DNA of 64,000 bases from Deltaproteobacteria bacterium (GTDB taxonomy: Bacteria > Desulfobacterota > Binatia > Binatales > Binataceae): NCBI GenBank assembly GCA_019237115.1, contig JAFAHS010000411.1, positions 2,855 through 66,854 on the forward strand. The letters are read 5' to 3'. This document shows, piece after piece, positions 14,416 through 35,080 of this stretch. The notes beneath the pieces were generated by a model, which saw only the letters and a program-made list of their open reading frames with translations, searched no databases and was not told the DNA's origin. How positions within the stretch are numbered: position 1 is the stretch's first letter; every line of letters starts with the position of its first letter. The position numbers were made by a program, and so were the translations under genes.

Positions 14416-14633
14416 CGGTCGCCCCTATCCCGCGTGTGACTTTGCTGCATTCAATTCTTCCTGAGGTTTACGCGAACCAGCAAGCAGCGGCGCGCGATGA
14501 AGCTTATTCCGCTTGGAACGCGATGACGAGTTTCGGCGTTAACTTCCTCGGATGGATCGGCGCCTCGCGGCAAGCGCCGGAGATGATGTACTTCCGGATC
14601 TGAATTCCTTCTAAGTGGCTCACTCTGGCCGAT

Positions 14634-17477: not shown

Positions 17478-17487
17478 ACCACTCTCC

Positions 17488-20400: not shown

Positions 20401-21891
20401 GCCGGGATTCTGGCTGTTCGGCGCGGCTGTCCCGGTCACCTGCAGGTTGCCCAAGAGATGCGGGCGGATACCTACCGCTTCAAGCGCTTTTTCCGAAGGC
20501 TGGCCTTGGCGTAGGCCCGGCCAGTCCGCCGCCACGATCAGCAAGTCGCTGTTGTCGGGAATAGTGATGGACAGGTCGCCCGCGTAGGTCTGGCTGTCGA
20601 GTACCGCGATAACCCCGAACGTCCCCGGCGCCTGCGCATTCCAACCGGTCGCGGGGTTGGCGATAGCGTCGCTCAGGCTCGCGAAGATCAGGTTGTTGTC
20701 GGCCGCGATCTGCCCGGTTACCGCCACCTGGAAAAGTGGCTGATCTGTGGGAATCGGCGGCATCGAGTCGCCCCGGTCGTAAGGCCCGCCACCCAAATTG
20801 CCGCTGAAGGCGTAGGAGTAACTCACGAGCACCTGCGCCGGGTTCGACGGAATCGACCCCGTCGTGAAGAAGAGCCGCCCCAGCGCTGGATCGACCGAAA
20901 CGCTGATGGGCAAGGTGATCTTCGGCCCGCCCGCAGACGGAGTGTACTGCTCGCTCGCCGGCGGCTGCGGCCAGCTTCCCGGCGGTGACGGCTGATCGCT
21001 GAGGTCGCAGATAACGATCTTTTCGGGCGGCACCGGGGTCCCTGCAACCGTGATTTCGAGCACCGGATGCGCGCCGAAATAGGTGCTCGCGGGCAGCGTC
21101 TTATCGACCAGCGCCTGGCGCAACGCCTCCAGATCGTCGTATAGGGCGCGCCGTCGCAGCGCGCCTTTGACCTGTACTTCGTCCGCAACCCTCTCGTCTG
21201 CGGCCAACGCCTGCGGCTGATTGAAAAGCGGAACGTCGAGGCCCAGCGGGTTGAACCGATAACGGCCGTCGCTGCCGTCAGTAACCGGGCGCGCGGTCGC
21301 CTGCGTGATTGGAAAACTTTCGAGCCGCCAGACGTAGATACCCAAATTGGGCGCGTTGTATTTGCCGCCGGCCTGCTCGACCGGACGTACTTCCACGGTC
21401 CGGCACGTCCGCTCGAAGGGACCGCCCAAAAGCTCCAGGGCGTTGGTGTCGCGCAGATCGGGCGTGACTACACTCGCCGTGCGCTGATGATTCAGATACT
21501 GCGTAATCTCGAGCAGCTCAAAAAATTCGACTACGCGCGCCGACCAGTTCGTGACGTCGTGCGCGAGCCCTTCAAGCATCGCGGCCGTGCCCTTGCTGCG
21601 ACGATACTTCAGCGTATGGGCCACGAAAGGCCGCGCCGTAAAGGCGCCCCCCGCGATCGGCTTAAGCCCCCGCGCGCCCAGCAGGTCGCCGATATACGGC
21701 ACGACCCATTCCTGGCAGGTCTCGATAAACCAGTTTTCGTACAGGCCGGCTATGTCCTCGTCGATCGCGTCGAGCTCGCGCTGGATTATCGCGAGCAGCG
21801 CGCGCAGCGGTTCGCCCAGCGCGCTGTCACGAATCCGATAAACCGCGGGAAGCAGGCTGTAGAGATCCGGCCGGGTGGGCGTGGCGCTCAT
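17488..21891 (-). CDS. giant P2 gpI-like baseplate/tail protein with internal Ig-like repeat array
   Basis: 1467 aa from 'MSATPTRPDLYSLLPAVYRIRDS...WFIETCQEWVVPYIGDLLG' (Tail_P2_I-like). ATGA overlap with the upstream gene. Poly-Pro linker, then 8 repeats. Confidence 0.7.
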   Translation of the reverse strand: MSATPTRPDLYSLLPAVYRIRDSALGEPLRALLAIIQRELDAIDEDIAGLYENWFIETCQEWVVPYIGDLLGARGLKPIAGGAFTARPFVAHTLKYRRSKGTAAMLEGLAHDVTNWSARVVEFFELLEITQYLNHQRTASVVTPDLRDTNALELLGGPFERTCRTVEVRPVEQAGGKYNAPNLGIYVWRLESFPITQATARPVTDGSDGRYRFNPLGLDVPLFNQPQALAADERVADEVQVKGALRRRALYDDLEALRQALVDKTLPASTYFGAHPVLEITVAGTPVPPEKIVICDLSDQPSPPGSWPQPPASEQYTPSAGGPKITLPISVSVDPALGRLFFTTGSIPSNPAQVLVSYSYAFSGNLGGGPYDRGDSMPPIPTDQPLFQVAVTGQIAADNNLIFASLSDAIANPATGWNAQAPGTFGVIAVLDSQTYAGDLSITIPDNSDLLIVAADWPGLRQGQPSEKALEAVGIRPHLLGNLQVTGTAAPNSQNPGGLILNGLLIDGSVTVEPGNLGSLQVAHCALKPSAGGIHVSGQVQGALATQASSPFAFATPAPAPHPVNGNGSPPPPPPPPTLRITTTSPLPGATVNAPYSTTFAATGGTGLAWSATALPPGLSMSAAGVLSGTPQTAGNFNLNVTVNGDAGASRTGSFALTVNPALAIATGSPLPAATLHSAYSETLAATGGSGVYSWSAVGLPAWLSLSASGVLTGTPPATASASFTITVTESNGATRSGTFALTVLPPPLVITATQLAGGAPTVAYSQSLSGTGGQPPLTWSLVAGALPPGLALAAATGAISGAPRTVGSFSFTVQLADSAASAPATRQFTIAIVSGLTITTAAMPAVTVGATYAETLAASGAAPPVTWSVSGGTLPAGLQLDPATGNVAGTPTSAGSFAFTAQITDSASATATKAFTIVVAATPVIAATALAGGTQGAAYSQNPVVAGGTAPFAWSVASGALPPGLTLDSATGRVSGNPTAAGAFSFAAQVKDSSSIAATQQFSLTIAPPLAITAAQALPGGTAEVPYSVSLAATGGTLPLVWSLTSGSLPPGLSLSASGVVAGTPSNAASSQFTVQVKDAAGASATASFSLIITPALAITTTALPTAEINVPYSVAVTAAGGTPPYAFSLAAGTLPAPLTLAPDGSIRGTPTATGAATVTVQCSDHNSVTVRQAFQFTVASTPVISTPPALPTGVAGSSYNVALAVSGGVAPFRWAVSTGALPPGVTLSGQGVITGEPAAPGTFNPTVTVTDAAGVASSRQFTVIVIDDNPSLQVTLIRSICGPLSLDEAAQLTLVDSIVDAAGKAIGIAAPAADASIQTSTVIGAIGSSAASGVRTLAAGNSIFTAPVFVERRQTGCVRFSYVAPGSRTPRRYRSQPDLALKAATPDEAAIQARLTPTFTALTYGQPGYAQLSRSCAAEIRTGAEDGSEMGSFDFLKQPQREDNLRGSLSEFLRFGLEAGIFFVT
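18088..20157 (-). repeat. eight in-frame tandem repeats of about 86 aa, He_PIG / dystroglycan-type Ig-like
   Basis: Each unit carries '(L/V).I(T/A)...LP.......Y...(L/V).A.GG..P..W(S/A)......LP.GL.L...G...G.P...G...F...V.D..' I counted units from aa 611 to about aa 1300 of the track ORF. Confidence 0.75.
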
Positions 21892-24800
21892 GGCTGCATC
21901 TCCGACAGCGCGATCCCCGCCGGGTTCACCAGCAGAAGCTCGGCCGGCAGGATGGCGCCTCCGGCCAGGCGCGCGGGCGAGGCGCACAGCATGGGCGGCA
22001 CGCCGCCGAACCGCCTCACTCCGCCAAGGATTGGTAACAGCCCGCCCTCGAACCGCCCGACGCCGCCAATGATCGGAAACAGCGCGGTCAAGTCGGTTGC
22101 GATCACGCCCGCAACCGATTGAATGACGTTGATAACTTCGGCCGCAGTCACCGGCTGAGCGAAAGCGCGCGCGTCAAACGAGAAGGCGTTCTGCAACGCC
22201 GTCTGTGCCGCCTGGAGCACATCAGCGGCGACAAAGCGCGGCTGGTCGACCAGCACGCTGGCGCTGATATCGAAAAAACGCGCCTGGTAGTTGGCCGCCA
22301 GCACCTGCTGCACCGGATCTTTCGCCAGGCCGATGGCGCCGATCAGGCTGGCGTAGAGCGCCGATTCCGGGTCGACCGCTGCGCCGTTGACGCCCGCGAT
22401 CGTCAAGTGAACCAGGTATCGGCCGCCGCTCAAGAGCGCCGCGGCCTGAGCCTTGCCGATACCGGCGAAAGCGCGCGCGAAATTCTCATAGTCGTCGAGC
22501 GCTACGATTCGGTCGAGCGTCAGCACCTTGAGCGGCGCGTTCTGACGCGCGCGATCAAGGACTTCCGGCCCCGCCCCGCCACTCGCCGCCAGCGGATTGG
22601 TCACCGATCGGATGCCGGGCGGGCGCGTTTGCAGGATGGTGAGCGCACCCGCGTCGACGTTGCCGTCCACACCGATTCCCGTCCGATACGTCGCCGCCAC
22701 GTTCTGATTGCCGCTGGGCAGGCGCGCGCCGGTCACGCCGTCGCCGAACGTGACGGTCGTCGTACCATCATCTTCGAGCCGGACGATGTAGTCCTGATCG
22801 GTCGGGGCGGCACCGAAAAGCGCCGGCACTTCCTGCCACTCCAGGTCGTTGACGCGGACTTCCAGAGTGCTTGCGGCGCCGCTTGGAGTCGCGGCCGCCA
22901 CGTATGTGAGCGGCGGCCTCTTGAGCGTGAAAACCTGATTGCTCTGCGATGCGTCCCCGCTGCCGAGAACCTCCGTAAAGGTCTCGCCGTGCGTCGCCCG
23001 CGCCACGTTGGCGTTGATAATCAGCCCCACCTCCTTCGGGGCGCCCGCGGGGCTGCTCCGCACGTAGCTGTTGGCGAGTCCGCCGTCGAACCGAAGCGTC
23101 GTGAACCCCCCAACATGGGTAATTTGCTCAAGCGTCAGAACTTCACTCGCAGTCACCCCCGGCGCATCGCCCGCGGTCCGCGCGCCGGTCAGCGCGACCG
23201 CCTGCCCGACGCTCATTCCGAGGACGAGGCCGTTCAGCATCAGCTCCGTCGTGCCGGCCGCGATATCGTCCGTAATCGGCAGGTCGATCAAGTCCAGCGC
23301 CTCGCTCTGGGCGTAAGCAATTGTGGTTCGCACCAGAAAGGTGGACGCCTTGTCAGCCCCCGTAATTTCGCTGCTGCCATCGATCCGCGTCAGCCGCACG
23401 CCGGTGACGCGACCGCTCAGACCGAAGCCCGCCAGCGCTGCTTCGCTCACCGTGCCGACCCGGAAAACCGCCGGATCGCCGGACGGAAATTCGAGCACGA
23501 TCCAACTGTCGCGCAGGATGCCAGGGACAACCTGCTCCAGATAGAGATCGGCGTTCTGATAGAACTGGTTCGTGATGGAGTCGTTCCAGACCGGCCACCC
23601 GCTGCTGTCCCAGTCATTCGGGTAGAGAAAATTGCCCCCCGGGGCGCCCGCCGGCTTCGGAAAGCCCTCGCCAGCCGGCGCGAGCAGGCTGCTGTAAAAA
23701 GGGGCGTTATTGCCGAAAATGCCCGCGTGCGTGCGCATGGCGAAGATCCCTGGATCGGGCGCCGGTAGCACCGCCGAAGGATTGGGTGGCGGTGGGGTCG
23801 GCGGTGGAGTGGCCGTCGCGAAGGGCGCCAGCGCGACCAGCTTATCGCGGTCCCAGTCGTTCATCGTCACGAAGGCGTTGAGGTCGCTCTCGCTAATGCT
23901 TCCCGCCAGGATTGCGCTCGTGTTGGCCAGGTTGAACGCCGCCGGCTCCGGAAAAAGCACCGGCGTTGGAAACTTGACGGGCGTGAATGGCGGCGGCTCC
24001 GGGCTCTGCCCAAGATCCTCGCGCAGATCCACTCGGGTCCGATTCAAATTCGCCTGCGCCTCGACTCCGCGAACGATCATCAGCTTGGTCTGCACCGTCG
24101 GCGAATTGTTATCGTTCCGTCCCACCAGCAGCAGCCGGTCGCCCTTCTGCAGATTGGTCGCGATACCGGTGAAGTAGATCGAGCCATCAATGCGAATCGC
24201 CGGAACGGGGTCCGGAATGGTTTCGCTGGACAGCGGATAGACCTGTGCCTGCGCAGCCGATATCAGCACACCCGACCCGGCGGGGAAGCCTGCGCTGGTG
24301 CCGAGTAGATAGAGCCTGAGGCCGCTGGGCTCCGGATCGTCTTTGTCGAACAGATGTTGGGGATCGAAGACCAGCGCAAGGTCCTGCGGCCGGGTGAGAC
24401 GCGGGCGCAGGGCGTTGCGCGATGCGAACGCCTGAAGGTCCTCGATCGTCTCAAACGTCTGCGGCAGCTTGCCCTGCGCGGGAACGTTCTGAACCTTGAC
24501 CCCCCTGGAGACGGCGACCGTCGCCGGCGCACCCGGACTGTCATCCGCGGTGAATGCCAGGAAGGCGCTGGCCGCCACACCGGGGCTGAGTTCGTAGCCG
24601 ATCGTACGCGCCAGCTCCAAAACCGAGAGCCGTTCGGTTGCCGTCCGCAGGTAGCCTTCGTTGGCGATGCGCTCCTGGTAGAAGGTGAGGACATCGGCCA
24701 CTACCGCCCATGCATCCAACAGTGCGATGACGGGGTCGTCAGCCGCGCGCGTCGTGAGCGCCGCCAGCGGGCGCGAGCCCTGATTCGCACCGTCGGGAAT

Positions 24801-24965
24801 GGCGATTGCGTGAAGCTGCGCGATCATATCGCGCAGGAAGGTCGGGTAGGTCCCGATCCGATACGCCAGCGCGGCAAGCCCCGGACGGTTGAACGGCGCG
24901 CTCGGCAGCGGCGTGGAAACGCAACAGCCGCAAGCATTGAGCTTGGGTGTCGGCCCGTTGCTCAC
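21888..24965 (-). CDS. baseplate wedge protein, Baseplate_J-like paralogue 2 (Afp12/gp7-like position)
   Basis: 1025 aa. N-terminus 'NACGCC...FNRPGLAALAYRIGTYPTFLRDMIAQL'. 'TFGDGVTGARLPSG.QNVAATYRTGIG..GNV' and 'NPLAASGGAGPE' are J-like blocks. Confidence 0.65.
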   Translation of the reverse strand: MSNGPTPKLNACGCCVSTPLPSAPFNRPGLAALAYRIGTYPTFLRDMIAQLHAIAIPDGANQGSRPLAALTTRAADDPVIALLDAWAVVADVLTFYQERIANEGYLRTATERLSVLELARTIGYELSPGVAASAFLAFTADDSPGAPATVAVSRGVKVQNVPAQGKLPQTFETIEDLQAFASRNALRPRLTRPQDLALVFDPQHLFDKDDPEPSGLRLYLLGTSAGFPAGSGVLISAAQAQVYPLSSETIPDPVPAIRIDGSIYFTGIATNLQKGDRLLLVGRNDNNSPTVQTKLMIVRGVEAQANLNRTRVDLREDLGQSPEPPPFTPVKFPTPVLFPEPAAFNLANTSAILAGSISESDLNAFVTMNDWDRDKLVALAPFATATPPPTPPPPNPSAVLPAPDPGIFAMRTHAGIFGNNAPFYSSLLAPAGEGFPKPAGAPGGNFLYPNDWDSSGWPVWNDSITNQFYQNADLYLEQVVPGILRDSWIVLEFPSGDPAVFRVGTVSEAALAGFGLSGRVTGVRLTRIDGSSEITGADKASTFLVRTTIAYAQSEALDLIDLPITDDIAAGTTELMLNGLVLGMSVGQAVALTGARTAGDAPGVTASEVLTLEQITHVGGFTTLRFDGGLANSYVRSSPAGAPKEVGLIINANVARATHGETFTEVLGSGDASQSNQVFTLKRPPLTYVAAATPSGAASTLEVRVNDLEWQEVPALFGAAPTDQDYIVRLEDDGTTTVTFGDGVTGARLPSGNQNVAATYRTGIGVDGNVDAGALTILQTRPPGIRSVTNPLAASGGAGPEVLDRARQNAPLKVLTLDRIVALDDYENFARAFAGIGKAQAAALLSGGRYLVHLTIAGVNGAAVDPESALYASLIGAIGLAKDPVQQVLAANYQARFFDISASVLVDQPRFVAADVLQAAQTALQNAFSFDARAFAQPVTAAEVINVIQSVAGVIATDLTALFPIIGGVGRFEGGLLPILGGVRRFGGVPPMLCASPARLAGGAILPAELLLVNPAGIALSEMQP

Positions 24966-27430
24966 GCGCCACCCTCCATGAAGAACTCGAGCCGCCCGTT
25001 TTCGGCCTCGTTGGGATCATTGTCCAGGCGTGCGATCTCAAGCCGGGCCATCTCGATTCGCCCGGCCAGCAGCTCGCCGTGCGGTGTCTCGCCGAAGCGT
25101 TGAAAGCGATTGGGCGCGTAGGCGGTGGTATCCAACCAAAGCACGCCCGGCACTTGCATCGCCGCGGCCACGATCCGGCTCAAATAGACCGGCTGGCCGA
25201 AAGTGAAGTTGTCAGGATGGAAAAAGCCGCGGCGGCCGTCGGGCAGGTCGCGATTGCTGAAGGTTTCCAGCAACGCCTCTTCGACATCGCCCTGGAAGTA
25301 GGCCGGCGCGACGTACACGGTGAAGGCAATATCCAGCGGCGCGAAAATCGGCGCCTCCACTTCCAGGTCGAAGCCGGCCAGACGCAGCGGCTCCAGAAAG
25401 TCGCGGATTGTGGCGCGAAAAGCATCATTCACCGGCTGGCCCCCGCGGCGCTGCACCGTGACGAACATCGTGTGCCAAGTGCCGGTGAAGCGCAGCGTCG
25501 CTTCGGCCTTCTCCACTTCCGGATGGCGGCCGGCGGCATCCGCGTAGTCTTGCTCCGTTACCGCGCGTTGCTGCGTACGGAAGGCCTGTGGCGCATTGAG
25601 GCGCACCTCGTCGTCCGGCTCGGGATCGATGCCGCCCTGGCTCGGGAGCGGATTCCGGACATTCTTGATCCCGCTAACGTTGGTGACGACGTGCGCGATC
25701 GCTTCGGCGCCGACGTGCCCGGCGCTGCCGTTTCCGATGCGATAATTCGCAGTGAAACCGGCATTCGGTGCCGCGCCTAAAATTCCGTCACCAAACCGCA
25801 AGGTCGCCGTGCCGTCATCCTCGGTTTCCACCACGAAATTGAGGTCGAAAGGCCCGGCGCTGAGCAGATCGCGCAGTGGCGTCCACTTCACCTGGTTGGT
25901 GTCCGACAAAATCACCGCCGGCGCCGCCGCGCGCGGATCCTGCACGACCGCCGCTGACGCCGCCCGCGCGCTATCGAACGGAGTGGCGAACGTGATCCCG
26001 GTGTTTTGCAGGCGGGGGCGGAACCTTCCTGGCGTGAACTCCATTGTCTCGCCTGCGACAGTCGCGCCGTGATCCGCCAGCACCAGGTTGGCGCGCGCGA
26101 CGCTTACCGCCAACTTCAGCCCCGAACTCGTGGTCGTCGACAGACAGAGTGGAAACGGCAAGGCGTCCTCCGCGCCCCACCCGATCTCCACCACCGCAGT
26201 ATTGTTCAGAGGGTCGGTACTCGGCTTGGGCGGTGCGGTTAGACGCACGACCCAGCGATGCGCCGGGTCGGCATCCGCCGCGGCCCCGGTGGCCGGGCCG
26301 ATGACCTCCTCGAACAGCACCGCATCTCCAACCGCTAGTTGAATCGGCCCGCCGTCACCTTGGCTCAGCAAAGTAGCCTCGGTAGCGCCCTTGGGCAGAC
26401 AGCAGGAATCGTCGCCCCAGGTGTAAAACTGCATCTGGTTATTCGCCGCGTGCAGGGTAACATCGTGGAGGGTCTCAAAAACCACCGCCCCCTGCGTCGA
26501 AGCTGTCTGCACCTGGTCGAGGGGGAAAGCGCCGCGCGGCGCGTTCACCTGGGTTAGCATCTGGGTTTTCCTGCCGGCCGAGGGTCCCGGCAGGGTGAGT
26601 CCATCGGCGCTGCTGCCGGATGCGACCTCGATATGAACCCACGCCCGAGCGTTCACGCCGTCATGCATCGCGTAGTCCAGCAGGCGCACATGACGCCGCA
26701 CCGATGTGCGTCTGCGTGCAGTGCCGAGGTAAGCTTCCGTCGCGACCGCGTCCTGGTAATAACTCAGGTGGTCACCGGCGTAGGCAAGTAGTTCAACCAG
26801 CGCGACTCCGAGATCGGCCGGGTTCTGTTCCTGCCAAGCGGGCATCGTGACCGACATGCGGTCCAGCATCAGCGTGCGGAAGCTGGAATAGTCTTTGGCG
26901 AGATAATCGATCGGCGGCGCGGCGGGGATGCTCTCCGGCGGACAGACCGCCGTCGGCTGGCAATCGAAATCGCTAGGGCACTCAACCTTGAAAGAAAAAT
27001 CGAGCGCCGCAAACTGCACATCAAAGTTGGACGGCGGCTCGGCGTCCGTAGGGGAGCTAACCACACGCAGCGTGTAAGTGGAAAAATCCCCCGCCGAATC
27101 GGTGCGGACTACCAGTATATGATCCGCGTTCGGAAGGCTCGCAAAAAAAGCCCGCTCAGCCGCGTTCGCCGGCGGGGCGGGCACTGACGACGCCGGGAAG
27201 ATCCAAACGGCGTTGACGGGGCTCACGCGCGTGCCGCCCTCGATGCGCAGGTTTTGCACCGTCAGAGCCGACGCCGGTTGGAACAGATGGACCAGCAGCG
27301 TCTGTTGTGGCGGGCTGCCCGCGGGCGCCTGCTGATCCAGCACGTCCAGAAAATCGAGGCCATTTAGCGCCGGATTGGCCAGGACCGCCTGACGCCGCCT
27401 GCGATTCTCGCAGATATACTGCGCCGGCAT
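24962..27430 (-). CDS. baseplate wedge protein, Baseplate_J-like (Afp11/gp6-like)
   Basis: 822 aa. 'LRFGDGILGAAPNAGFTANYRIGNGSAGHVGAEAI' and 'NPLPSQGGIDPEPDDEVRLNAPQAFRTQQRAVTEQDY'. Confidence 0.75.
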   Translation of the reverse strand: MPAQYICENRRRRQAVLANPALNGLDFLDVLDQQAPAGSPPQQTLLVHLFQPASALTVQNLRIEGGTRVSPVNAVWIFPASSVPAPPANAAERAFFASLPNADHILVVRTDSAGDFSTYTLRVVSSPTDAEPPSNFDVQFAALDFSFKVECPSDFDCQPTAVCPPESIPAAPPIDYLAKDYSSFRTLMLDRMSVTMPAWQEQNPADLGVALVELLAYAGDHLSYYQDAVATEAYLGTARRRTSVRRHVRLLDYAMHDGVNARAWVHIEVASGSSADGLTLPGPSAGRKTQMLTQVNAPRGAFPLDQVQTASTQGAVVFETLHDVTLHAANNQMQFYTWGDDSCCLPKGATEATLLSQGDGGPIQLAVGDAVLFEEVIGPATGAAADADPAHRWVVRLTAPPKPSTDPLNNTAVVEIGWGAEDALPFPLCLSTTTSSGLKLAVSVARANLVLADHGATVAGETMEFTPGRFRPRLQNTGITFATPFDSARAASAAVVQDPRAAAPAVILSDTNQVKWTPLRDLLSAGPFDLNFVVETEDDGTATLRFGDGILGAAPNAGFTANYRIGNGSAGHVGAEAIAHVVTNVSGIKNVRNPLPSQGGIDPEPDDEVRLNAPQAFRTQQRAVTEQDYADAAGRHPEVEKAEATLRFTGTWHTMFVTVQRRGGQPVNDAFRATIRDFLEPLRLAGFDLEVEAPIFAPLDIAFTVYVAPAYFQGDVEEALLETFSNRDLPDGRRGFFHPDNFTFGQPVYLSRIVAAAMQVPGVLWLDTTAYAPNRFQRFGETPHGELLAGRIEMARLEIARLDNDPNEAENGRLEFFMEGGA

Positions 27431-27431
27431 C

Positions 27432-27785
27432 TTAAACCCCGCGCGCGAATTGCTCGACCTGGCGCACCTGGCTGGCGCGAATTACATATTGAACCGTCAC
27501 CAGCAGGGTTGAATCCTGAACTTCGGCGCGCACCGCCTCTGCCTGGATCAGATCGCCGAGCCACTGCTGCAAAGTCCCCTGCACCAGAAACTGCGTCGCG
27601 GCTGCCAGCTCGTCGCTCGACGGGGCGAACACCATCTGCAAAAGGCCGCTGCCCAGCGTCGGCCGGTTCACTCGTTCGCCGGGACTGGTGAACAACAATT
27701 GTTCAATCAGATCGTGCAGATGATCGTCGCCGACGATTGCGGTGCGACCGCGGCCGTCAATCTGAAACGGATAAGCGATATTCAT
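27432..27785 (-). CDS. GPW/gp25-like baseplate wedge protein
   Basis: 117 aa from 'MNIAYPFQIDGRGRTA...LIEQLLFTSPGERVNRPTLGSGL'. ATGA overlap with the PAAR-like gene. Confidence 0.8.
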   Translation of the reverse strand: MNIAYPFQIDGRGRTAIVGDDHLHDLIEQLLFTSPGERVNRPTLGSGLLQMVFAPSSDELAAATQFLVQGTLQQWLGDLIQAEAVRAEVQDSTLLVTVQYVIRASQVRQVEQFARGV

Positions 27786-28105
27786 GTTCCGAGAACCCGC
27801 GTTTGGGTTAGCGCGACCAGCAGCGGAGTGCCGGTGGGCGCGCACAGCGCCTTGCTGTCCTGCAGCAGCACGGGGAATCCATTGGCCAGAACCCTGGTCG
27901 CGGCGATCGAGAACACGCCCGTGACGCACGGCCCGTTACCCGCGGGCGGCGGCGGCAAGGCGCACGCCGCGACCTGGTAGGGAGCGGAGATCAACACCGC
28001 CGGCTGGCCGCCGACGAGGACCCGTGGGAAGGTTGCGGTGGGGGTCGCCATGCCGCCGTGCGCACACTTCACCATCGAGCTTACATTCAACAAGAACCCG
28101 GGCAT
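27782..28105 (-). CDS. PAAR-like spike-tip protein (DUF4280-type)
   Basis: 107 aa. 'VKCAHGG...VLVGGQP...TRVLANGFPVLL...ALCAPTG' is the PAAR-like pattern. It lies directly downstream of the spike gene. Confidence 0.65.
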   Translation of the reverse strand: MPGFLLNVSSMVKCAHGGMATPTATFPRVLVGGQPAVLISAPYQVAACALPPPPAGNGPCVTGVFSIAATRVLANGFPVLLQDSKALCAPTGTPLLVALTQTRVLGT

Positions 28106-28169
28106 CTGGTGCGGCCTCCTTTATGCTGGATGAGAGACGCGAGCGGCCCTCTCCGTGCCATGTGGCCAG

Positions 28170-28685
28170 CTACACGATCGTCAATGCGCCTTGGTTGATA
28201 TTCACGGCGGGACCGGTCATCACGATGCTCGCCCCTTTGCCGTTCTGGATGAAAATGCCGGTGTCGTTCACCAGGATGAAGGCGCCGGTTGCGCTCTTAA
28301 TCAGGATGCCGCCGGTCGGGCCGGGCACGTCGCTGATTACCAGGCCGTTCTGCAGCGGCGTCTGCATCACGATTCCCGGCACGCCGGGCGGAATCGTAAG
28401 CGAGAGCGCGGGAACTTCGACCGTCGAGCCCCAGAAGGTTCCGACCCAGATCGGGTAGTCGAGGTCGCCCTGCTCGAATTCGACCCAAACGCCGGCGCCG
28501 ATCATGGGAATGCTGAACACGCCGGTTTGCGGTCCGCCAACCGGCAGCGACGGCAGCGCCCAGGTCAGCAGCGGGGTGATTGCGGCATCAGGCACCAACA
28601 CCTGCAACCGGCCGCGCCGCTCCGGATCGACGTTATTGATTACCGAGCCGCGGAACTTGCCTAAAAATTTCTTGCATTCGATCAT
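28170..28685 (-). CDS. gpV/gp5-like OB-fold spike protein (Phage_base_V, VgrG C-module-like)
   Basis: 171 aa. 'FRGSVINNVDPERRGRLQVLVP...PSLPVGG...GVWVEFEQGDLDYPIWVGTFW'. Confidence 0.8.
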   Translation of the reverse strand: MIECKKFLGKFRGSVINNVDPERRGRLQVLVPDAAITPLLTWALPSLPVGGPQTGVFSIPMIGAGVWVEFEQGDLDYPIWVGTFWGSTVEVPALSLTIPPGVPGIVMQTPLQNGLVISDVPGPTGGILIKSATGAFILVNDTGIFIQNGKGASIVMTGPAVNINQGALTIV

Positions 28686-29812
28686 GCGGGCACCGTCGAT
28701 ACTGTTGAGATCAAACCGTTGCGCGTGAGCGTAAAATCCTGCGTGTACTCGCCGCGCTTCAGATGATGGGTGACGCTGTTGACGAAGTACAAACCATCGA
28801 AAGCGAGCCCCGCGCCGCGCACGCCGACCAGCCGGCGCGGCTTGAGCGTCTGCCCGTAGCGCAGCACGTCGAGACTGCCCTGCGCGCTGACCGCGTCAGC
28901 CTTCTGCGCGGCGATCGCAAGCCCTCGCAATGCGGCCTGCACCGGCGAAAGCTTCCCAGCGCCCTCCACGTGATCGACCTTCAGGGAGAGCGGAGGAATC
29001 AACCCCAGCGGCGGGTTGATCGGCGTAATTTCGGGGACCGGAATTGGAATCGGCAGCTTCGTGATCTCCTCCTGAATCACGAGAATCGGCAACGTCGCCT
29101 GTTGGCTGTTGAAACTGAAGCTCAGCGATTCGACGTTGGTGTGCGCGTCCATGTCGATATTCAGCGCCGGTTGCAGCGGACCGATTTTTACCGGCGGTCC
29201 CCAATAGGCGACGCTCGTGCCCGCAACCGGGCCCGGATAGACGTGGAAGACGTAGCCGGCTTCATCGGCAAGCTTCTTGAGGTAACAAAGATCAGTCCCC
29301 TGATGAATTGGCACGCGGTCCACCGGAATCGGCACGTCGATCAGCACGCTGGGAAACACGAGCGGAATCACTCCCAGGAACGCGTATTTGGCGAGGATCA
29401 ATAGAACCCGCGCCTCCGGCGGCATCGCCGGGTATTCGATTAGCCCCGTAAAGTCGATGTAATCCATCACGCGCGAGAGGTCTTCGCCTGTGATCGTGAG
29501 GACCGGGCCTTGCATGGCGCTGCCTCCGGTAACCTCGTGGTTCGTCATGACGCCGTCGATGAGAACGTCGGGCGTGCCGTTGAGCGTCACGACGATCAGC
29601 ACGCGCACGAGCGGAATCTGCGCGCCGCCCGCGACCAGAAAAAGCGTATGCAGCGGCGAGTTCTTGCTCAGGTTGAATTTCAACTGGAAGCCGCTCGCAT
29701 GCTCGGTGCGCGAAGTGACTTCGACGCTGATGAGCGCGTCCAGCACCTCCTTGGAGACCGGCAGCGGCTCAATCGGGCCGATCATCAGCGTAAGGTCGAT
29801 TCCCTTAAGCAT
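28682..29812 (-). CDS. gpD/gp27-like baseplate hub (late control D family)
   Basis: 376 aa from 'MLKGIDLTLMIGP'. C-terminal 'GLYFVNSVTHHLKRGEYTQDFTLTRNGL' is typical of gpD-like hubs. Confidence 0.7.
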   Translation of the reverse strand: MLKGIDLTLMIGPIEPLPVSKEVLDALISVEVTSRTEHASGFQLKFNLSKNSPLHTLFLVAGGAQIPLVRVLIVVTLNGTPDVLIDGVMTNHEVTGGSAMQGPVLTITGEDLSRVMDYIDFTGLIEYPAMPPEARVLLILAKYAFLGVIPLVFPSVLIDVPIPVDRVPIHQGTDLCYLKKLADEAGYVFHVYPGPVAGTSVAYWGPPVKIGPLQPALNIDMDAHTNVESLSFSFNSQQATLPILVIQEEITKLPIPIPVPEITPINPPLGLIPPLSLKVDHVEGAGKLSPVQAALRGLAIAAQKADAVSAQGSLDVLRYGQTLKPRRLVGVRGAGLAFDGLYFVNSVTHHLKRGEYTQDFTLTRNGLISTVSTVPA

Positions 29813-30167
29813 TCGGGGTTCCCGGCAGCCCTTGCGGCAGGGCAATCTTTAGCGTGAGCCCCGGCTGCTCCAGCTCCTCCGGCCGCATCGCGCCATTGGC
29901 GTCGCAGAGCCGCCAATAAAGCTCGGGGTCGCCGAGAAACTGCGCCGCCAGGTTGTCCAGCCGCTCGCCCTGCTTGACGCTATGCTCCTGGATTGGCGTG
30001 AGGCGGTCGGGCGCGGGGACAAAGCGCCGGCGCACGTAGACAATCGTCTGCCCGTCCGGCGCGAGAAAAGTCGCTGTATCGATGCCGTTGTACCGGCTGT
30101 TGGCGGGAAACAGGCTCGCCTTGAGCCCCGTAAATTGCAGCAGCGCCTGCAGGCTTGGCGTGCTCAT
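29805..30167 (-). CDS. LysM-like small protein (Afp7 C-module equivalent)
   Basis: 120 aa. 'HSVKQGERLDNLAAQFLGDPELYWRLCDANG...PG..LKIALP' is LysM/tail-X-like. Confidence 0.55.
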   Translation of the reverse strand: MSTPSLQALLQFTGLKASLFPANSRYNGIDTATFLAPDGQTIVYVRRRFVPAPDRLTPIQEHSVKQGERLDNLAAQFLGDPELYWRLCDANGAMRPEELEQPGLTLKIALPQGLPGTPNA

Positions 30168-30820
30168 CAGATGCTCTCCAAGCCCAGCGCGCCCAAGGTC
30201 CCCGCGCTGAGCCCGCTCAGGACTTCCTTCTGGATCATGTACGCCATGAAGATATTGCCGCCCTTATCGTTGAAGCCGAGATCGTTCACGTTCAGCACGC
30301 GCATCCCGAGGCTGACCCTGGCGCGAATCGGGTTGAGATTGGGGTCGAAGGCCTCCTCGGTGATGCTGAAGTCGCTGATCCGCACCGGAATTATCCGGCT
30401 TCGGCTCCAGACGAAGAGACTGAGCGGCGCCTCGACCGGCGCGATTTCGAGCACTCCGGACTGCGCGAGGCGGTTGGCGGCCAAGAGCTGACTGCTCGGC
30501 GGATAGACGACGGTCTCGAACGCGGCGAGCTGCGGATGAATTCCAAACTGGGTGACGAGCGGATTTTGATCGGGAAATTCAAGCTGATCGGCGGCGTCGA
30601 TCTCCGCCTCCAGTTTGAACGTTTCGATCGCCGGCCCGGTTAGCCGCAGCGCTTCGAGGCGGTTCTGCGTCTCGGCCCGGACCGTTTGGGCTTGCAGCGT
30701 GCGGGTCAGTGAATCGGGATTGTACTGGAGGATGATCACGCGCTGCACGACGCCGCTGTTGGCGTCGACCAGCACAAGCCCAGCTTTGAGGAGGCGGGGG
30801 GAATTAGGGAATGCGCTCAT
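30167..30820 (-). CDS. CIS tube-initiator-like protein (Afp7 N-module equivalent)
   Basis: 217 aa. 'LLKAGLVLVD...VIILQYNPDSLTRTL' and 'PLSLFVWSRSRIIPVRISDFSITEEAFDPNLNPIRARVSLGMRVL' are remembered from eCIS/T6SS-like tube-family proteins. Confidence 0.6.
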   Translation of the reverse strand: MSAFPNSPRLLKAGLVLVDANSGVVQRVIILQYNPDSLTRTLQAQTVRAETQNRLEALRLTGPAIETFKLEAEIDAADQLEFPDQNPLVTQFGIHPQLAAFETVVYPPSSQLLAANRLAQSGVLEIAPVEAPLSLFVWSRSRIIPVRISDFSITEEAFDPNLNPIRARVSLGMRVLNVNDLGFNDKGGNIFMAYMIQKEVLSGLSAGTLGALGLESI

Positions 30821-30892
30821 TTGATCGAACTACCTCCGAAGAAGATTCAGTTCGTGACCCTGCATGTTGTCTACCCGCTTCTCTGGAATCGC

Positions 30893-31417
30893 TTAGCGCT
30901 CTCTGGTGACCGACTGGAGCAAGGCCCAGTAATCAATAGCTCCCTTAATCCGGCTCGGTGGAGGATCTAGACCCTGGCTTTTCCAGTCGATCACCCGCCG
31001 CTCCTCCATAAGCTCCAGAAAGCATTTGATGGCATCCCGCTCCTCCGGACTGAATTGCGTTGCGCGAGCACGGAAAAAGTCAGCCCTCCATCCGGCTGAT
31101 CTTCGCGGCGGCGTCAGATTGAAGATAACGAAATCCCTGAGCACTTCGGCCTCTTCGCGGGAACCAAGGCACGCCATCATATAGGCGGGCAGGTAATGCC
31201 GGAACGCACTGGGAGTAAACAAGGGTAGCGCTTGCGAATGATCGCGCAACATCTCCCTGGACAAATCGGACCACCTCTGTGCTCTAAAAGCCCGCGCGAC
31301 TTCCGTGCACTCAGGATCGCCCTCGTGGCTACCAACGAGTTCGTCGTCGCTCGGCTTCGGGGTTTTCGCGAACGCATCTTTAATTTTCGCTGTGACCTCC
31401 TCTGCGCTCTGGGCCAT
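30893..31417 (-). CDS. putative immunity/cognate protein of the upstream effector
   Basis: 174 aa with no signal peptide. ATG is 1 nt after the effector TAA. GC is lower (34/60 and 33/60 in two lines I counted). 'F.PSAFRHYLPAYMMA' resembles small immunity-like DUF proteins. Confidence 0.45.
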   Translation of the reverse strand: MAQSAEEVTAKIKDAFAKTPKPSDDELVGSHEGDPECTEVARAFRAQRWSDLSREMLRDHSQALPLFTPSAFRHYLPAYMMACLGSREEAEVLRDFVIFNLTPPRRSAGWRADFFRARATQFSPEERDAIKCFLELMEERRVIDWKSQGLDPPPSRIKGAIDYWALLQSVTRER

Positions 31418-31418
31418 G

Positions 31419-33410
31419 TTAGGGCCCTCCGCACTTGGCCATCATTACCGCTTCGCACTCTCGCAGCCCGGCGTAAAGCTGAGCTATCTGCTGCATGTGC
31501 CCTTCGTATCCAGGATCGCCCTTTTGAAAACAGTTCTTCTGGAAGTTCACCCTGGCAGTGATGCAGGCGTTGTAGGCCGCCACTTTCGCCGTAGCGGTCG
31601 CACAAGTGTCGTTTTGTATCGAGCATCCGCGAACCCGATCGCACAGCTTCTTCATCGCGTCGTGGAGCCGGTCAACTTCCTCGTTAGTGCACCTGCGACT
31701 CTTCGGGGGCGCTGCTGGCTGCGGCGCTGGCGCCGGCTGGGGCGCAGGTTGCGGGGCGGGAGCCACTCTCTGACGACCGGCTACGGTTGATTCTTGGTCG
31801 AACCACCGGCGCAACGTTTCGAGATCCGTCTCGCCGAACGGAAACGTTGGTCGTAGGGTTTGCGGGGCGGAGGGTTCGTAGCCCGGCGCCGCGGGCTGAT
31901 GACAACTTCCGATACAAACGCCCAGCGGGTTCGGGAGAATGACGTAGCCTTGCTTGTGTAAGGCGATCTGGAAGTTGACATAGAAGAGAAGGTCGACAGT
32001 TGCCACCGTGATGTAGATTCCCAGCGCTACCGGAATGGCAATAGTAGCAGCGGGAGCAAGCGCTGGAGCCGCCTCGGCCGCGGGAGCGAGAGCCGGAGCG
32101 GCTTCAGCAGCGCCGCCCGCCTCGCCTAGCAACTCCGCGCTGCCCTCTATCCCTCGCTCGGCGAACCATCGGGTGCCGGCCCTCTCAAGTGCAGTCTTCG
32201 CTGCGCTTCCGGTAGCCGTTTGCGCTGTACTAGGCGCCAAAGCGCCCGCCAGCCCCACTGCCCCCACCCCTCCGAGCTGAAGCCGCGTGGTGTCGAGCCG
32301 CGATGAGCCGGATGGCGCCGCCTCGCTTGCCGGAGGTTCGCCCAGCCCGGCGTTCAACCGTCCCGTCCGGTAGGCGTTGTAGGCTTCCTGTTCCGTCAAG
32401 ACGTGGGAGCAGTCGCCCTCGCGGCATTTCCTCACTGCATTGGCAGCTTCTACCAGTCCCGCCCGACGGTACATCGATTCGACGCCGGGGGCAGACTTCT
32501 CATATGGGGCCGAGGGTGCCGGAGACACGTGTACGCCAGGCTCTCCACCGACAGCGGGGGGCGGTTGTTGGGCGGTCGACGCTGGCGGTGTGTTACGTTC
32601 CTGGTTGCGGCGCGTCACCTCCGCGTCCAGCGTATCCGAATTCTCTTGTAGTGCCGCGTAATCGGGCGAATCCGGCGTAAGCGATCCCAGCTTCTCTCGC
32701 ACCTTGTTGACCAGCGACGCAAGGTCTTGCTCGCTGAGGCCGCGCACTTCGTCCGGAGTCAGTTGAGCCGTAAATGGGTCCAGGTTCGTCTTTCGCTGAA
32801 TGACCGCGGAAGTTCTAAGGTGCGTCGCGCTGGAACCGGCTGAACCTAGCCCCTGTTCGGCTTTGTTCGCCTCTACCTCGAAGAGGTCACTAGGAGGTCC
32901 GATTACAAGGTCGCCTCGGCTAAACGCGCCTGACGTAACACCGCCGCTGGCGCCGGTTTGTTGAGTAACGTGCGAGAGTTCGTGTGCGAGCAGCTTCCGA
33001 CCTCCCATCGTCGCCGGCGCGTATTGCCCCGCTCCGAACACCACGTCCCGCCCGACCGTGTACGCGACCGCACTCACCGCGCGCGCCGATTCCGCGGCCT
33101 GATCGTCCGCGTGGATCCGAACTTTGCTGAAGTCGTGGCCGAAGCGCGGCTCGAAGAAGGCCCGCGTTGCCTTATCCAGGGGTCGTCCCGGCGACCGCAG
33201 CACGTTGTGTACGATCGGCGGCGCTAGCGACGGCGCGGCGCCGCCGCCGTTCCCCCGGCGCTGCAAGCCCATCGCGTTCTGCTTGCACTCGTCGCATTCG
33301 CCCTCGGCCTTCATCGATCCGCCGCAGGCGCATTTGCGCTGCAAGATTCCGAAGAGCGTTCCGGACTGGGTCGGGGCCGCTTTCGGGGCGGGCTGCCGTT
33401 CGGTGTTCAT
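31419..33410 (-). CDS. DUF4157-headed eCIS effector candidate 2 (hydrophobic segment plus Cys-rich C-terminal domain)
   Basis: 663 aa. 'LQRKCACGG..C.EC', 'VLRSPGRPLDKATRAFFEPRFGHDFSKVRIHAD...LLAHELSHVTQQ'. Hydrophobic 'IAIPVALGIYITVATVDLLFYVNFQIAL'. C-terminal 'CTNEEVDRLHDAMKKLCD..RGCS..DTC......YNAC...VNFQKNCF..GDPGYEGH'. Confidence 0.7.
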   Translation of the reverse strand: MNTERQPAPKAAPTQSGTLFGILQRKCACGGSMKAEGECDECKQNAMGLQRRGNGGGAAPSLAPPIVHNVLRSPGRPLDKATRAFFEPRFGHDFSKVRIHADDQAAESARAVSAVAYTVGRDVVFGAGQYAPATMGGRKLLAHELSHVTQQTGASGGVTSGAFSRGDLVIGPPSDLFEVEANKAEQGLGSAGSSATHLRTSAVIQRKTNLDPFTAQLTPDEVRGLSEQDLASLVNKVREKLGSLTPDSPDYAALQENSDTLDAEVTRRNQERNTPPASTAQQPPPAVGGEPGVHVSPAPSAPYEKSAPGVESMYRRAGLVEAANAVRKCREGDCSHVLTEQEAYNAYRTGRLNAGLGEPPASEAAPSGSSRLDTTRLQLGGVGAVGLAGALAPSTAQTATGSAAKTALERAGTRWFAERGIEGSAELLGEAGGAAEAAPALAPAAEAAPALAPAATIAIPVALGIYITVATVDLLFYVNFQIALHKQGYVILPNPLGVCIGSCHQPAAPGYEPSAPQTLRPTFPFGETDLETLRRWFDQESTVAGRQRVAPAPQPAPQPAPAPQPAAPPKSRRCTNEEVDRLHDAMKKLCDRVRGCSIQNDTCATATAKVAAYNACITARVNFQKNCFQKGDPGYEGHMQQIAQLYAGLRECEAVMMAKCGGP

Positions 33411-34780
33411 CAGGGGTTTCCCCGCGGAATAAACAGCGTCGCTCGTACCTGCCGATCGCGTTCGTCGATGGTTTTCGAGGCGGTGGTGTCGCCGCAGTTG
33501 TGGATGCCGTCTTCCAGCTTGGCGCAGGCTGCCGGTATCAGCAGAGGATCGGCCAGGCGGTCGGCGGAGATACCTGCTTCCGCCAGGGCGTGCGCGACCG
33601 ATCGCACTCGGTACTCGCCTAACTCGCGATTGTGCGCCGCCGGTCCCTCGATCGAAGCCTTGCCCGTGAGTTGCACCTTGAACTGAGGCCCGTTTTTCAG
33701 CCAGGTTACAACGCCGTCAAGAGTCACGCTGCCCGGCGCGGTGAGACTGTCGCGCAACGCCTTCTGATCGCTCACGACGGAGCCCGGCCGATCGAGCTTG
33801 AAGTAGATATCCATGCTGACCGTGAGCGGCGGCGTCGGCGCAAGGTTTCGCTCCGGAGGAGGAAGATCCGAACGACTCGGATTCCCGCCGTCCTTGGTCC
33901 CGGTCCCCGGCAAGCCGGGAAGCGTCGGAGTGAGGAGGTCGAATTTCACGCAGTCCGCGCCCTTGGCGTACCGGTCGGTCGGGCAACAGCGGCCGAGGAT
34001 CGTCAGGCGGTAGGGCGGGCAGCAGCGGTCGACCGACGAACCCTCGCAACACATCCCGTCCACCCGTTTGCGCCACCCGGGCGCGCAGTCCACGTTTCCG
34101 GCGCCGCCTTGTCCCGAGCCCTTTAAGGCTCCGAGACCCTTGTTGATATCTTCGAGTGATGGCGCATCGATCGGTCCCGGAATAATCGGCTTGATATCCA
34201 GACGGTCCAACGGAGACGGTAGCGGGATCAGGGGCGGTGGTTCCTTCTTGGTCTGATCATCGCTCTGAGGCTGGCGGCGCAGGCGCGGCGGTTCCTGGAT
34301 GGCCGGCGTTTGCGGCACGCCCCCGCGTCCCATCCGTGCCGCCTCGCGCTCGGCGGCATCGCCGGGCGCACCCAATTGGATCTGCTCAGGGATTCCTTGT
34401 GAGCCGCTCCCGGTTTGCTGCATCACGTGCGCAAGTTCGTGCGCCAGCGAATCCAGACCTGCCGCGCTTCGTGGCTCGTATTCGCCGCGATTAAAGACGA
34501 CCTCATTCCCCACCGCATAAGCCTTCGCGTTCACCGCCTGCGCCGATTCCGCCGCGCGCGCGTCGGTATGCACCCGCACGCGGCTGAAGTCGTAGCCAAA
34601 GCGCTTCTCCATCAAGGCGCGCGCCGCCATATCCAGCGGCCGGCCCGGCGAATGCAGGACTTCGCGCACGATCGGCGGAACTCCGCTCATGCCATTCCGC
34701 CTAGCGCCGAAACGCGCGGCGGCGGCATGATTCCGCATAGGCGCCGACGACTTCGCCGCGATCTGCCGCTCTCCCATCAT
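33410..34780 (-). CDS. DUF4157-headed eCIS effector candidate 1 (Cys-rich middle plus OmpA-like C-terminus)
   Basis: 456 aa. 'VLHSPGRPLDMAARALMEKRFGYDFSRVRVHTD...LAHELAHVMQQ'. Middle 'CAPGWRKRVDGMCCEGSSVDRCCPPYRLTILGRCCP'. C-terminal 'QLTGKASIEGPAAHNRELGEYRVRSVAHALAEAGISADRL'. Confidence 0.7.
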   Translation of the reverse strand: MMGERQIAAKSSAPMRNHAAAARFGARRNGMSGVPPIVREVLHSPGRPLDMAARALMEKRFGYDFSRVRVHTDARAAESAQAVNAKAYAVGNEVVFNRGEYEPRSAAGLDSLAHELAHVMQQTGSGSQGIPEQIQLGAPGDAAEREAARMGRGGVPQTPAIQEPPRLRRQPQSDDQTKKEPPPLIPLPSPLDRLDIKPIIPGPIDAPSLEDINKGLGALKGSGQGGAGNVDCAPGWRKRVDGMCCEGSSVDRCCPPYRLTILGRCCPTDRYAKGADCVKFDLLTPTLPGLPGTGTKDGGNPSRSDLPPPERNLAPTPPLTVSMDIYFKLDRPGSVVSDQKALRDSLTAPGSVTLDGVVTWLKNGPQFKVQLTGKASIEGPAAHNRELGEYRVRSVAHALAEAGISADRLADPLLIPAACAKLEDGIHNCGDTTASKTIDERDRQVRATLFIPRGNP

Positions 34781-35073
34781 CGCTTGCCGTGTCCTCCCGT
34801 CAGTCCGCGATGCACCGATTGGGCGACTTGAATGCCGATCGCCTGGGCATTCGCGCCCTGTGCGATCCGGAGCGATCCGCTGTCCACCGCGGGCTTGCCT
34901 CCCGGCGCCTGCCTCAGCCGGCCCAGGCCGCGCTCGGCGATCAGCCGCGTCAACTCACGTCTGATCCCTTCGGCGATCCGGAAACGATCGCCGGGAGGGA
35001 ATCCCTCGAGCGCCAGTTCGTCGATCCGGACCCTGACCTTCCCCGCCTGCGTTTTGTCGATGGTCGTGCGCAT
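34777..35073 (-). CDS. small conserved hypothetical protein (possible effector adaptor)
   Basis: 98 aa. ATGA-coupled to effector 1 and 8 nt downstream of the ATPase gene. No family recognised. Confidence 0.45.
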   Translation of the reverse strand: MRTTIDKTQAGKVRVRIDELALEGFPPGDRFRIAEGIRRELTRLIAERGLGRLRQAPGGKPAVDSGSLRIAQGANAQAIGIQVAQSVHRGLTGGHGKR

Positions 35074-35080
35074 GGCGGGT

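Follow-up and report, generated by a model that had tools for sequence, protein, structure and literature searches.

Proteins with an N-terminal DUF4157 domain, a long linker and a C-terminal toxin were described for extracellular contractile injection systems (eCIS) as eCIS-associated toxins (EATs) by Geller et al. 2021 (Nat Commun 12:3743; PMC8213781): long linkers were typical of them, and some had adjacent immunity genes, indicating antibacterial use. Here we analyse a 663-aa protein encoded at 31419..33410 on the minus strand of a 64,000-nucleotide stretch of DNA (the window) from a Deltaproteobacteria bacterium of the Binataceae (contig JAFAHS010000411.1, positions 2,855 to 66,854). This effector belongs to the class 'N-terminal DUF4157 + long linker + C-terminal toxin', that is, to the cargo of Afp/PVC-type eCIS, and all three of these parts are as in the EATs. 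It differs from them in that its toxin domain, Ntox16, and the DUF6714 protein encoded next to it are absent from the main text and the examined supplementary files of that study, and in that the effector genes here lie in mid-operon, between the AAA+ and baseplate genes, instead of at the 3' end.

The toxin family has an entry in Zhang et al. 2012 (Biol Direct 7:18; PMC3482391; Table 2), within the block 'Predicted metal-independent RNase toxins', as an alpha-helical domain with a conserved R and [DNE]xxH. The entry gives 'T2SS, T6SS, PVC' as export routes (type II and type VI secretion systems and PVC), names 'PVC-Metallopeptidase' and 'RHS', and has '-' under immunity; the PVC-metallopeptidase was proposed to process or release the toxin. 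Metal-independent RNase is the sole published prediction for Ntox16, an unproven guess of 2012, and searching the literature for Ntox16, PF15523, PF20461 and DUF6714 returned only this paper. The domain in the window belongs to the same Pfam family, is alpha-helical, has the conserved Arg and an acidic-His motif of different spacing, and sits behind a PVC-metallopeptidase head; the alternative heads and export routes also agree (RHS, T6SS, T2SS, PVC). As the pairing of PVC-metallopeptidase with Ntox16 was already in that table, the proposal of an earlier sequence-only reading of the window, that the domain is the best candidate for a novel warhead, does not hold as to novelty. The differences lie elsewhere: the entry lists no immunity protein, Cys pattern or membrane helix, whereas DUF6714 is consistently linked here, and the relatives found here are from Acidobacteriota and Actinobacteria, unlike the cyanobacteria, proteobacteria and verrucomicrobia of the 2012 range.

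A third comparison is with the AlgoCIS cargo proteins Cgo1/Cgo2, whose disordered N-terminal domain (NTD) is required for loading while DUF4157 is dispensable, according to a preprint (10.64898/2026.05.27.728243). Both systems have two cargo genes in the operon, each encoding a disordered NTD, DUF4157 and a variable C-terminal domain, with an AAA+ gene nearby. They differ in their C-terminal domains, and for Cgo1/Cgo2 the preprint text examined mentions neither an immunity gene nor a hydrophobic helix or a Cys-rich domain. A further difference is that here the two effectors have NTDs that could not be aligned.

Ntox16 and its DUF6714 partner

The C-terminal domain of the effector (aa 572-663; 31422..31697, minus strand) is a member of Pfam Ntox16. 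PF15523 matches aa 573-653 over model positions 4-83 of 85 (E 5.7e-11), and since its 42.9 bits exceed the curated cutoff of 25, the domain is not unassigned, as the sequence-only reading had left it. That reading was right about the count of exactly 8 Cys (574, 590, 596, 603, 616, 627, 652 and 660); the range that it gave, 31422-31709, was slightly too wide, the quoted Cys-rich string being aa 574-660 (nt 31431-31691). In an alignment of 90 sequences all 8 Cys are conserved, in 68-89 of the 90 (75-99%), and three polar residues are near-invariant: R620 (89/90), H638 (90/90) and D632 (77/90). D632 lies 6 residues before H638, and not 3 as in the 2012 motif, because of a 3-residue GYE insertion common to 61 of the 90 members; in members of the short form the sequence is DPGH, as the 2012 motif has it.

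The way in which the Cys are lost suggests a four-disulfide scaffold. C603 and C660 are gone together nine times, with C603 never missing alone, C590 and C616 are gone together three times, and the sequences with such a paired loss keep their remaining Cys. For this reason a Zn cluster or four-ligand metal site was judged less likely. P0070 and P0071, both carried on Rhs proteins, are missing three of the eight Cys, which makes the disulfides non-essential.

An AlphaFold2 model of the domain, built from a 58-row alignment, was confident (pLDDT 96.7, pTM 0.86) and showed three helices, at aa 576-590, 603-627 and 635-660. The Foldseek comparison foreseen in the sequence-only reading gave no significant relative in the PDB (best E 0.23, with generic bundles, MIT and cytochrome b562 among them, as the matches) or in BFVD (best E 0.09). 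With the DUF6714 model likewise having no significant relative in the PDB (best E 1.6), assignment of a function from the fold was dropped. Sequence searches against PDB chains returned nothing for the toxin domain or its partner, and neither the effector nor the partner was matched by NCBIfam or PADLOC. As a side observation, the best, non-significant BFVD match is an uncharacterised 193-aa protein of Marseillevirus LCMAC101 (A0A481YS82; query TM-score (TMq) 0.74, rmsd 2.4 A over 86 columns, 17% identity), which is possibly a giant-virus copy of the modelled fold.

To see how widely the domain is spread, 1.84 billion representatives were scanned exhaustively with HMMER; this returned 96 clusters of Ntox16 homologues, 52 of them at E<1e-10, versus 1 protein (domain alone) and 7 (58-sequence profile) from a word-index homology search. 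Among the 97 proteins then scanned with Pfam (the 96 clusters and the target), Ntox16 was found in 87, DUF4157 in 35 and RHS repeats in 5, while PT-HINT, Hcp/TssD and a fused DUF6714 were each found in 1 of the 97. The Rhs-headed members are P0071 (2085 aa), P0061, P0070, P0096 and P0053; P0073 is an Hcp-Ntox16 fusion, and P0043 joins HINT, Ntox16 and DUF6714 in frame. Thus Ntox16 is a mobile module of predicted toxicity that is combined with DUF4157, Rhs, Hcp and PT-HINT heads in the manner of polymorphic toxins, and the earlier description of the domain as warhead-like was borne out by its other trafficking heads.

Some relatives are organised differently. P0032, P0042, P0054, P0055 and P0036 resemble 'polytoxins', with DUF4157, Ntox16 and two hydrophobic helices followed by a conserved domain of ~400 aa (containing GKAEAKISLDGDSPLEALYKAMEQDG); this ~400-aa domain had no Pfam match whatever.

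The gene that follows the effector (30893..31417, minus strand) encodes a 174-aa protein that matches DUF6714 (PF20461, E 2.2e-15, 57.4 bits against a cutoff of 27). The two genes are tightly coupled: the junction reads TAA-C-ATG, so that the second ORF (open reading frame) begins 1 nt past the effector stop, and a GGAGG lies 9-13 nt 5' of its ATG, within the final effector codons. All 12 aligned partners match PF20461. The protein is predicted to be all-alpha (AlphaFold2 pLDDT 88.9) and has no signal peptide, and neither a signal peptide nor a lipobox was found in any DUF6714 examined. Most of its invariant residues are hydrophobic or structural, and when DUF6714 members were compared with Pfam at a relaxed threshold (E up to 1), no tie to any named Imm family appeared.

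We then looked at how far DUF6714 tracks Ntox16, using loci found with 10 close sequences and the patterns GDPGYEGH and CATATAKV. DUF6714 lies directly 3' of Ntox16 in 17 independent contexts, among them the contig of the closest homologue, P0001, and L001, L002, L004, L005, L010-L016, L020-L022 and L024, and is fused to it in P0043 (L023 ends too near the toxin to judge). They include ten metagenome loci, one of which (L014) encodes a protein with Ntox16 directly after DUF4157. The 14 retrieved loci with DUF6714 directly behind the toxin span Acidobacteriota (as L002) and Actinobacteria (as L004, Paractinoplanes tereljensis). In L005, away from any eCIS, a stand-alone 140-aa Ntox16 protein, 31% identical to the target's domain, is followed by DUF6714 with housekeeping genes around, and on a Ralstonia pseudosolanacearum megaplasmid (L024) DUF6714 follows an Rhs protein that is interrupted by an insertion sequence and ends in Ntox16. 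Furthermore, DUF6714 accompanies Ntox16 proteins that have no hydrophobic segment, namely P0087 (in L005) and the HINT protein P0043. Given these helix-less and Rhs cases, its partner is the Ntox16 domain and not the helix or eCIS loading.

These data predict that DUF6714 is likely the cognate immunity protein of Ntox16. Since it follows Ntox16 in eCIS, Rhs, HINT and orphan settings alike, whether or not a helix is present, immunity is much better supported than a role as an eCIS-loading chaperone. The toxin domains are mildly basic (median isoelectric point 8.5) and the DUF6714 partners mostly acidic (4.3-6.3); this charge complementarity and the non-catalytic pattern of conservation fit the prediction that DUF6714 would bind and neutralise Ntox16. 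As far as the searched literature shows, the immunity assignment has not been made before. The conserved, linked partner and the tight coupling agree with what the sequence-only reading had said of the small downstream gene. Of the outcomes that it had named as fatal to its proposal, none was seen: the domain matched no structural or chaperone family, and both alternative heads and an immunity-like partner exist.

Two further kinds of locus are noted here for completeness. In Solirubrobacterales, an Ntox16 protein without DUF4157 (L003, 5278-6261; L006-L009, L017-L019) has LQRAAGN/CKCGGAC at its N-terminus and a hydrophobic stretch rich in Gly, with no eCIS genes nearby; a convergent 201-aa ORF overlaps the 3' end of the Ntox16 gene, and neither this ORF nor a downstream 160-aa ORF showed similarity to the DUF6714 hidden Markov model (HMM). 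On the Nostoc sp. NIES-3756 plasmid pNOS3756_1 (L025, 5049-5387) a truncated or frameshifted DUF6714 lies amid ankyrin-repeat genes and transposases with no Ntox16 near; it might be a remnant, or else an orphan immunity gene.

A hydrophobic helix beside Ntox16, and competing explanations

In T6SS effectors of the prePAAR/Tse6 type, transmembrane helices aid entry into the target cytoplasm; these helices are N-terminal and Eag chaperones are needed. The effector here offers only a functional analogy, in that it combines a hydrophobic helix with a small toxin domain and a predicted cytoplasmic immunity protein. It differs in that the helix lies between linker and toxin or, in relatives, after the toxin, and in that no Eag-like gene is present.

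The helix spans aa 457-484 (nt 31959-32042) and is the sole region of the protein where a Kyte-Doolittle 19-mer exceeds 1.6 (peak 2.06), in agreement with the roughly 28-residue hydrophobic segment seen earlier from the letters. Together with the sequence behind it, FQIALHKQGYVILPNPLGVCIGSCHQP, it forms a pre-toxin module (aa 456-506; 31893..32045, minus strand) that we delimited from a 17-homologue alignment and a module HMM. The module, helix plus 'FQxAL..GYVILPxPLxVCIxxCHQP', aligns in 12 of the 17 homologues with architecture (a), with HMM E values of 1e-24 to 1e-29 among homologues. Its HMM matches 19 proteins or ORFs, every one of which has Ntox16; seven other DUF4157 ORFs gave no match. 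In architecture (b), Ntox16 stands directly after DUF4157 and hydrophobic tails lie behind it; at least five unrelated hydrophobic kinds occur, joined via Ala/Glu-rich or PVPVP linkers, and some are then followed by the ~400-aa domain.

Counted over the family, a hydrophobic 19-mer lies near Ntox16 (within 170 aa upstream or 150 aa downstream) in 50 of the 73 proteins with enough flank. The density is 5.3 per 1000 residues there versus 0.54 elsewhere in the same proteins, a roughly tenfold difference, and no such 19-mer was found in 7 control DUF4157 effectors of the same loci. The association reaches some Rhs versions (P0053, P0096) and the Hcp version P0073. One tentative proposal, which we hold possible but rather doubtful, is that these proteins represent a new, membrane-tethered type of toxin: a three-helix, four-disulfide Ntox16, its fold absent from solved structures, that would be active only via its adjacent helix, supplied at least five times independently, that would be neutralised by DUF6714 as a dedicated immunity family overlooked so far, and whose activity would be other than RNase. 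If this were true, the unit of helix and Ntox16 would show how the cargo of a phage-tail-like injector reaches or crosses the target inner membrane.

Taken together, we consider the best joint explanation, and a probable one, to be that the gene encodes an eCIS cargo effector with an Ntox16 toxin domain, that DUF6714 provides immunity and that the target is bacterial. The steps would be as follows. By analogy with AlgoCIS, the disordered N-terminus (aa 1-63, with LQRKCxC) would direct AAA+-dependent loading into the tube lumen. DUF4157 might process or release the toxin, perhaps near the junction of PKSRR with the following C, which is speculative. After injection the hydrophobic helix would insert in the target membrane and either tether Ntox16 or aid its crossing. 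Ntox16, a three-helix bundle with up to four disulfides, would then use its R620/D632/H638 patch against a target in the cytoplasm, which may be RNA, while DUF6714, translationally coupled to the toxin, would protect the producer and its kin by neutralising it. An immunity protein without a signal peptide speaks for a cytoplasmic site of action, and hence bacterial targets; with DUF6714 as such a protein, the eCIS would be aimed at bacteria.

Several observations speak against parts of this explanation. The Solirubrobacterales lineage (L003, L006-L009, L017-L019) has Ntox16 without DUF6714, as the only evaluable exception, and the linkage rate is biased, because most of the sampled loci come from the close subfamily. 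The target departs from the strict '[DNE]xxH' spacing given by Zhang 2012. With both structural models lacking a significant relative, the fold supports neither RNase nor any other chemistry, and the literature beyond Zhang 2012, as searched, holds no report of activity for any Ntox16 member. Finally, a disulfide-rich domain suits an oxidising compartment better than the cytoplasm, and some members (the small P0074 and P0079) carry Sec-like signal peptides.

The last two points belong to a different explanation, which we regard as unlikely. Here Ntox16 would be a toxin tethered to the target membrane and active on its oxidising side; it would fold with four disulfides in the periplasm or on the outer face, anchored by the adjacent helix, and damage the envelope or the membrane. 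DUF6714 would be no classical immunity protein but a cytoplasmic holdase or antitoxin on the producer side that keeps the reduced, helix-bearing cargo soluble and inactive until it is loaded. Besides the Sec signals of small members, this would account for the 8 conserved Cys with their pairwise loss and for the tenfold enrichment of flanking helices, of at least five unrelated modules and on either side of Ntox16; the peptidoglycan-binding OmpA-like domain of the neighbouring effector also suggests an envelope-directed system. However, the same DUF6714 partners helix-less Ntox16 (P0087 in L005, and P0043) and the Ralstonia Rhs toxin. Immunity proteins against toxins that act in the periplasm normally have a signal peptide or lipobox, which no DUF6714 has, and the Rhs-borne versions without 3 of the 8 Cys make the disulfides dispensable.

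Could the C-terminal domain be no toxin at all? It might be a structural or adaptor module (a packing plug, or a receptor- or metal-binding domain), with DUF6714 as its assembly chaperone; we think this very improbable. In its favour, there is no recognisable enzymatic fold, the matches being generic helical bundles, and about 15 clusters have Ntox16 right after DUF4157 with further sequence behind, so that it is not terminal; in P0032, P0042, P0054 and P0055 that sequence includes the conserved ~400-aa domain. Zhang 2012 (PMC3482391), however, noted Ntox16 as part of a 'polytoxin', which would account for such internal positions. Moreover, Rhs, Hcp and PT-HINT proteins carry Ntox16 at their very C-terminal end, the place that toxins hold in these systems; Ntox16 has invariant polar R, D and H; and it forms a stand-alone gene pair with DUF6714 amid housekeeping genes. 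An eCIS-specific chaperone role for DUF6714 was likewise set aside as unlikely, since it also follows Rhs-, HINT- and orphan Ntox16, some of them helix-less.

That the effector is aimed at eukaryotes such as soil protists or fungi, with a downstream gene unrelated to self-protection, is least credible of all: many eCIS toxins do lack immunity genes and target eukaryotes, the best (non-significant) structural match is a giant-virus protein and the operon holds large Ig-like and beta-helix fibre candidates, but a conserved, coupled partner that tracks the toxin across delivery systems is a hallmark of interbacterial toxin-immunity pairs, and the Rhs and Hcp heads indicate interbacterial use of the T6SS type.

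Layout of the effector and its operon

The effector ORF has an ATG start and encodes, in order, an NTD, DUF4157, a linker, the hydrophobic module, a Pro-rich spacer and Ntox16. The same arrangement of genes is called in independent assemblies, and the nearest genomic relative, an Acidobacteriota metagenome-assembled genome (L002), is 59-70% identical over the full length. The N-terminal region (aa 1-63; 33222..33410, minus strand) is polar and rich in Gly, Pro and Ala, and by analogy is a candidate cargo-loading signal. It contains 'LQRKCACGG..CDEC' at aa 23-42 (33285-33344, minus strand), and the N-terminus of 24 of 30 DUF4157-Ntox16 homologues has a [LIVM]QR..C..C motif. As a separate observation, [LIVM]QR(K)C..C(GG) was also seen in two Ntox16 proteins without DUF4157, both encoded away from eCIS loci (L005, 6001-6423; L003, 5278-6261). 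The motif could be a piece of the loading signal, and could serve as a marker for orphan eCIS cargo genes.

The DUF4157/eCIS_core domain, or PVC-metallopeptidase (aa 77-154; 32949..33182, minus strand; PF13699, E 6.6e-32), has an intact HExxH, H143-E-L-S-H147 (aa 143-147, nt 32970-32984), within LLAHELSHVTQQ (aa 140-151, nt 32958-32993). It is 53% identical to the DUF4157 domain of the upstream effector, with which the protein shares nothing else. The linker that follows (aa 155-453; 32052..32948, minus strand) is of low complexity, rich in Ala, Gly, Glu, Ser and Pro, and ends in two copies of AAEAAPALAP (aa 434-453, nt 32052-32111). The copies are identical as peptides and 23/30 identical as DNA, with all 7 differences synonymous, which suggests either an old duplication under selection or chance in Ala/Pro-rich sequence. 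Tandem Repeats Finder (TRF) did not report the repeat and the duplication is missing from homologues; it is a minor lineage-specific detail. Between the hydrophobic module and Ntox16 lies a variable Pro-rich spacer with PAPQ repeats (aa 507-571; 31698..31892, minus strand), in which TRF reported a 12-nt period at 31714-31737. It ends in a conserved basic 'PKSRR' directly before the first Cys; in the alignment, 'PKSR[KR]' is kept at this place among the architecture-(a) homologues. On all of these parts the sequence-only reading had been accurate: the ORF with its HExxH head, the linker with its short repeat, the hydrophobic segment and the PAPQ spacer were there, as were all of the strings quoted.

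The effector gene is part of a contractile-injection-system operon (21888..42373, minus strand) that we annotated with Pfam and NCBIfam. All genes are on the minus strand, in the order sheath (40361-42373), gp19-type tube, Pvc16_N/DUF4255, AAA+ ATPase, a 98-aa ORF, effector 1, the 663-aa effector, the 174-aa DUF6714 gene, CIS_tube, gpV/VgrG-like spike, PAAR-like, gp25 and two Baseplate_J proteins, and then large Ig-like, DUF6519 and beta-helix proteins. The Afp/PVC-like core set is complete (sheath, tube, baseplate gp25/J, spike, PAAR, Pvc16/DUF4255, AAA+ and DUF4157), so that by gene content the operon is an Afp/PVC-type eCIS, with putative action as an extracellular particle; the proposal that the gene is an effector of a contractile injection system is thereby supported. 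Promoter-like or terminator-like signals above chance were not found within 30000-35300.

The AAA+ ATPase (35081..37036, minus strand; PF00004, E 6.4e-28) is, by analogy with Alg15, a candidate cargo-loading ATPase. Effector 1 (33410..34780, minus strand; 456 aa) has DUF4157, a Cys-rich middle and an OmpA-like peptidoglycan-binding C-terminus (Pfam E 2.7e-5, with several NCBIfam OmpA/Pal matches); its stop overlaps the ATG of the 663-aa effector as ATGA. It is a predicted second cargo of the same eCIS and fits the 'Tox-OmpA' plus PVC-metallopeptidase class of Zhang 2012. The 98-aa ORF between the ATPase and effector 1 (34777-35073, minus strand) had no Pfam, NCBIfam or PADLOC match, and L001 has an 87-aa gene (1975-2238) in the equivalent position; the ORF may be a conserved small eCIS component. 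Past the baseplate genes (window 12559-21987, minus strand) lie a 1499-aa protein with He_PIG/Ig repeats, a 960-aa protein with DUF6519 and Ig-like domains and a 618-aa right-handed beta-helix protein. These are candidate tail-fibre or receptor-binding components of the eCIS and, as fibres, could be an indirect hint of extracellular action.

Meaning for the Ntox16 family

The class to which this gene belongs was catalogued in 2012, and the gene is an ordinary representative of it; Ntox16 is still among the many uncharacterised 'Ntox' families. The confident and compact model, the three invariant polar residues and the probable four-disulfide scaffold provide a testable handle on it. DUF6714 is a candidate immunity family where the literature lists none, which eases toxicity-and-rescue work and argues for antibacterial use of the eCIS. 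Finally, the statistically strong association with a membrane helix bears on eCIS engineering, namely on how injected cargo gets to its compartment.

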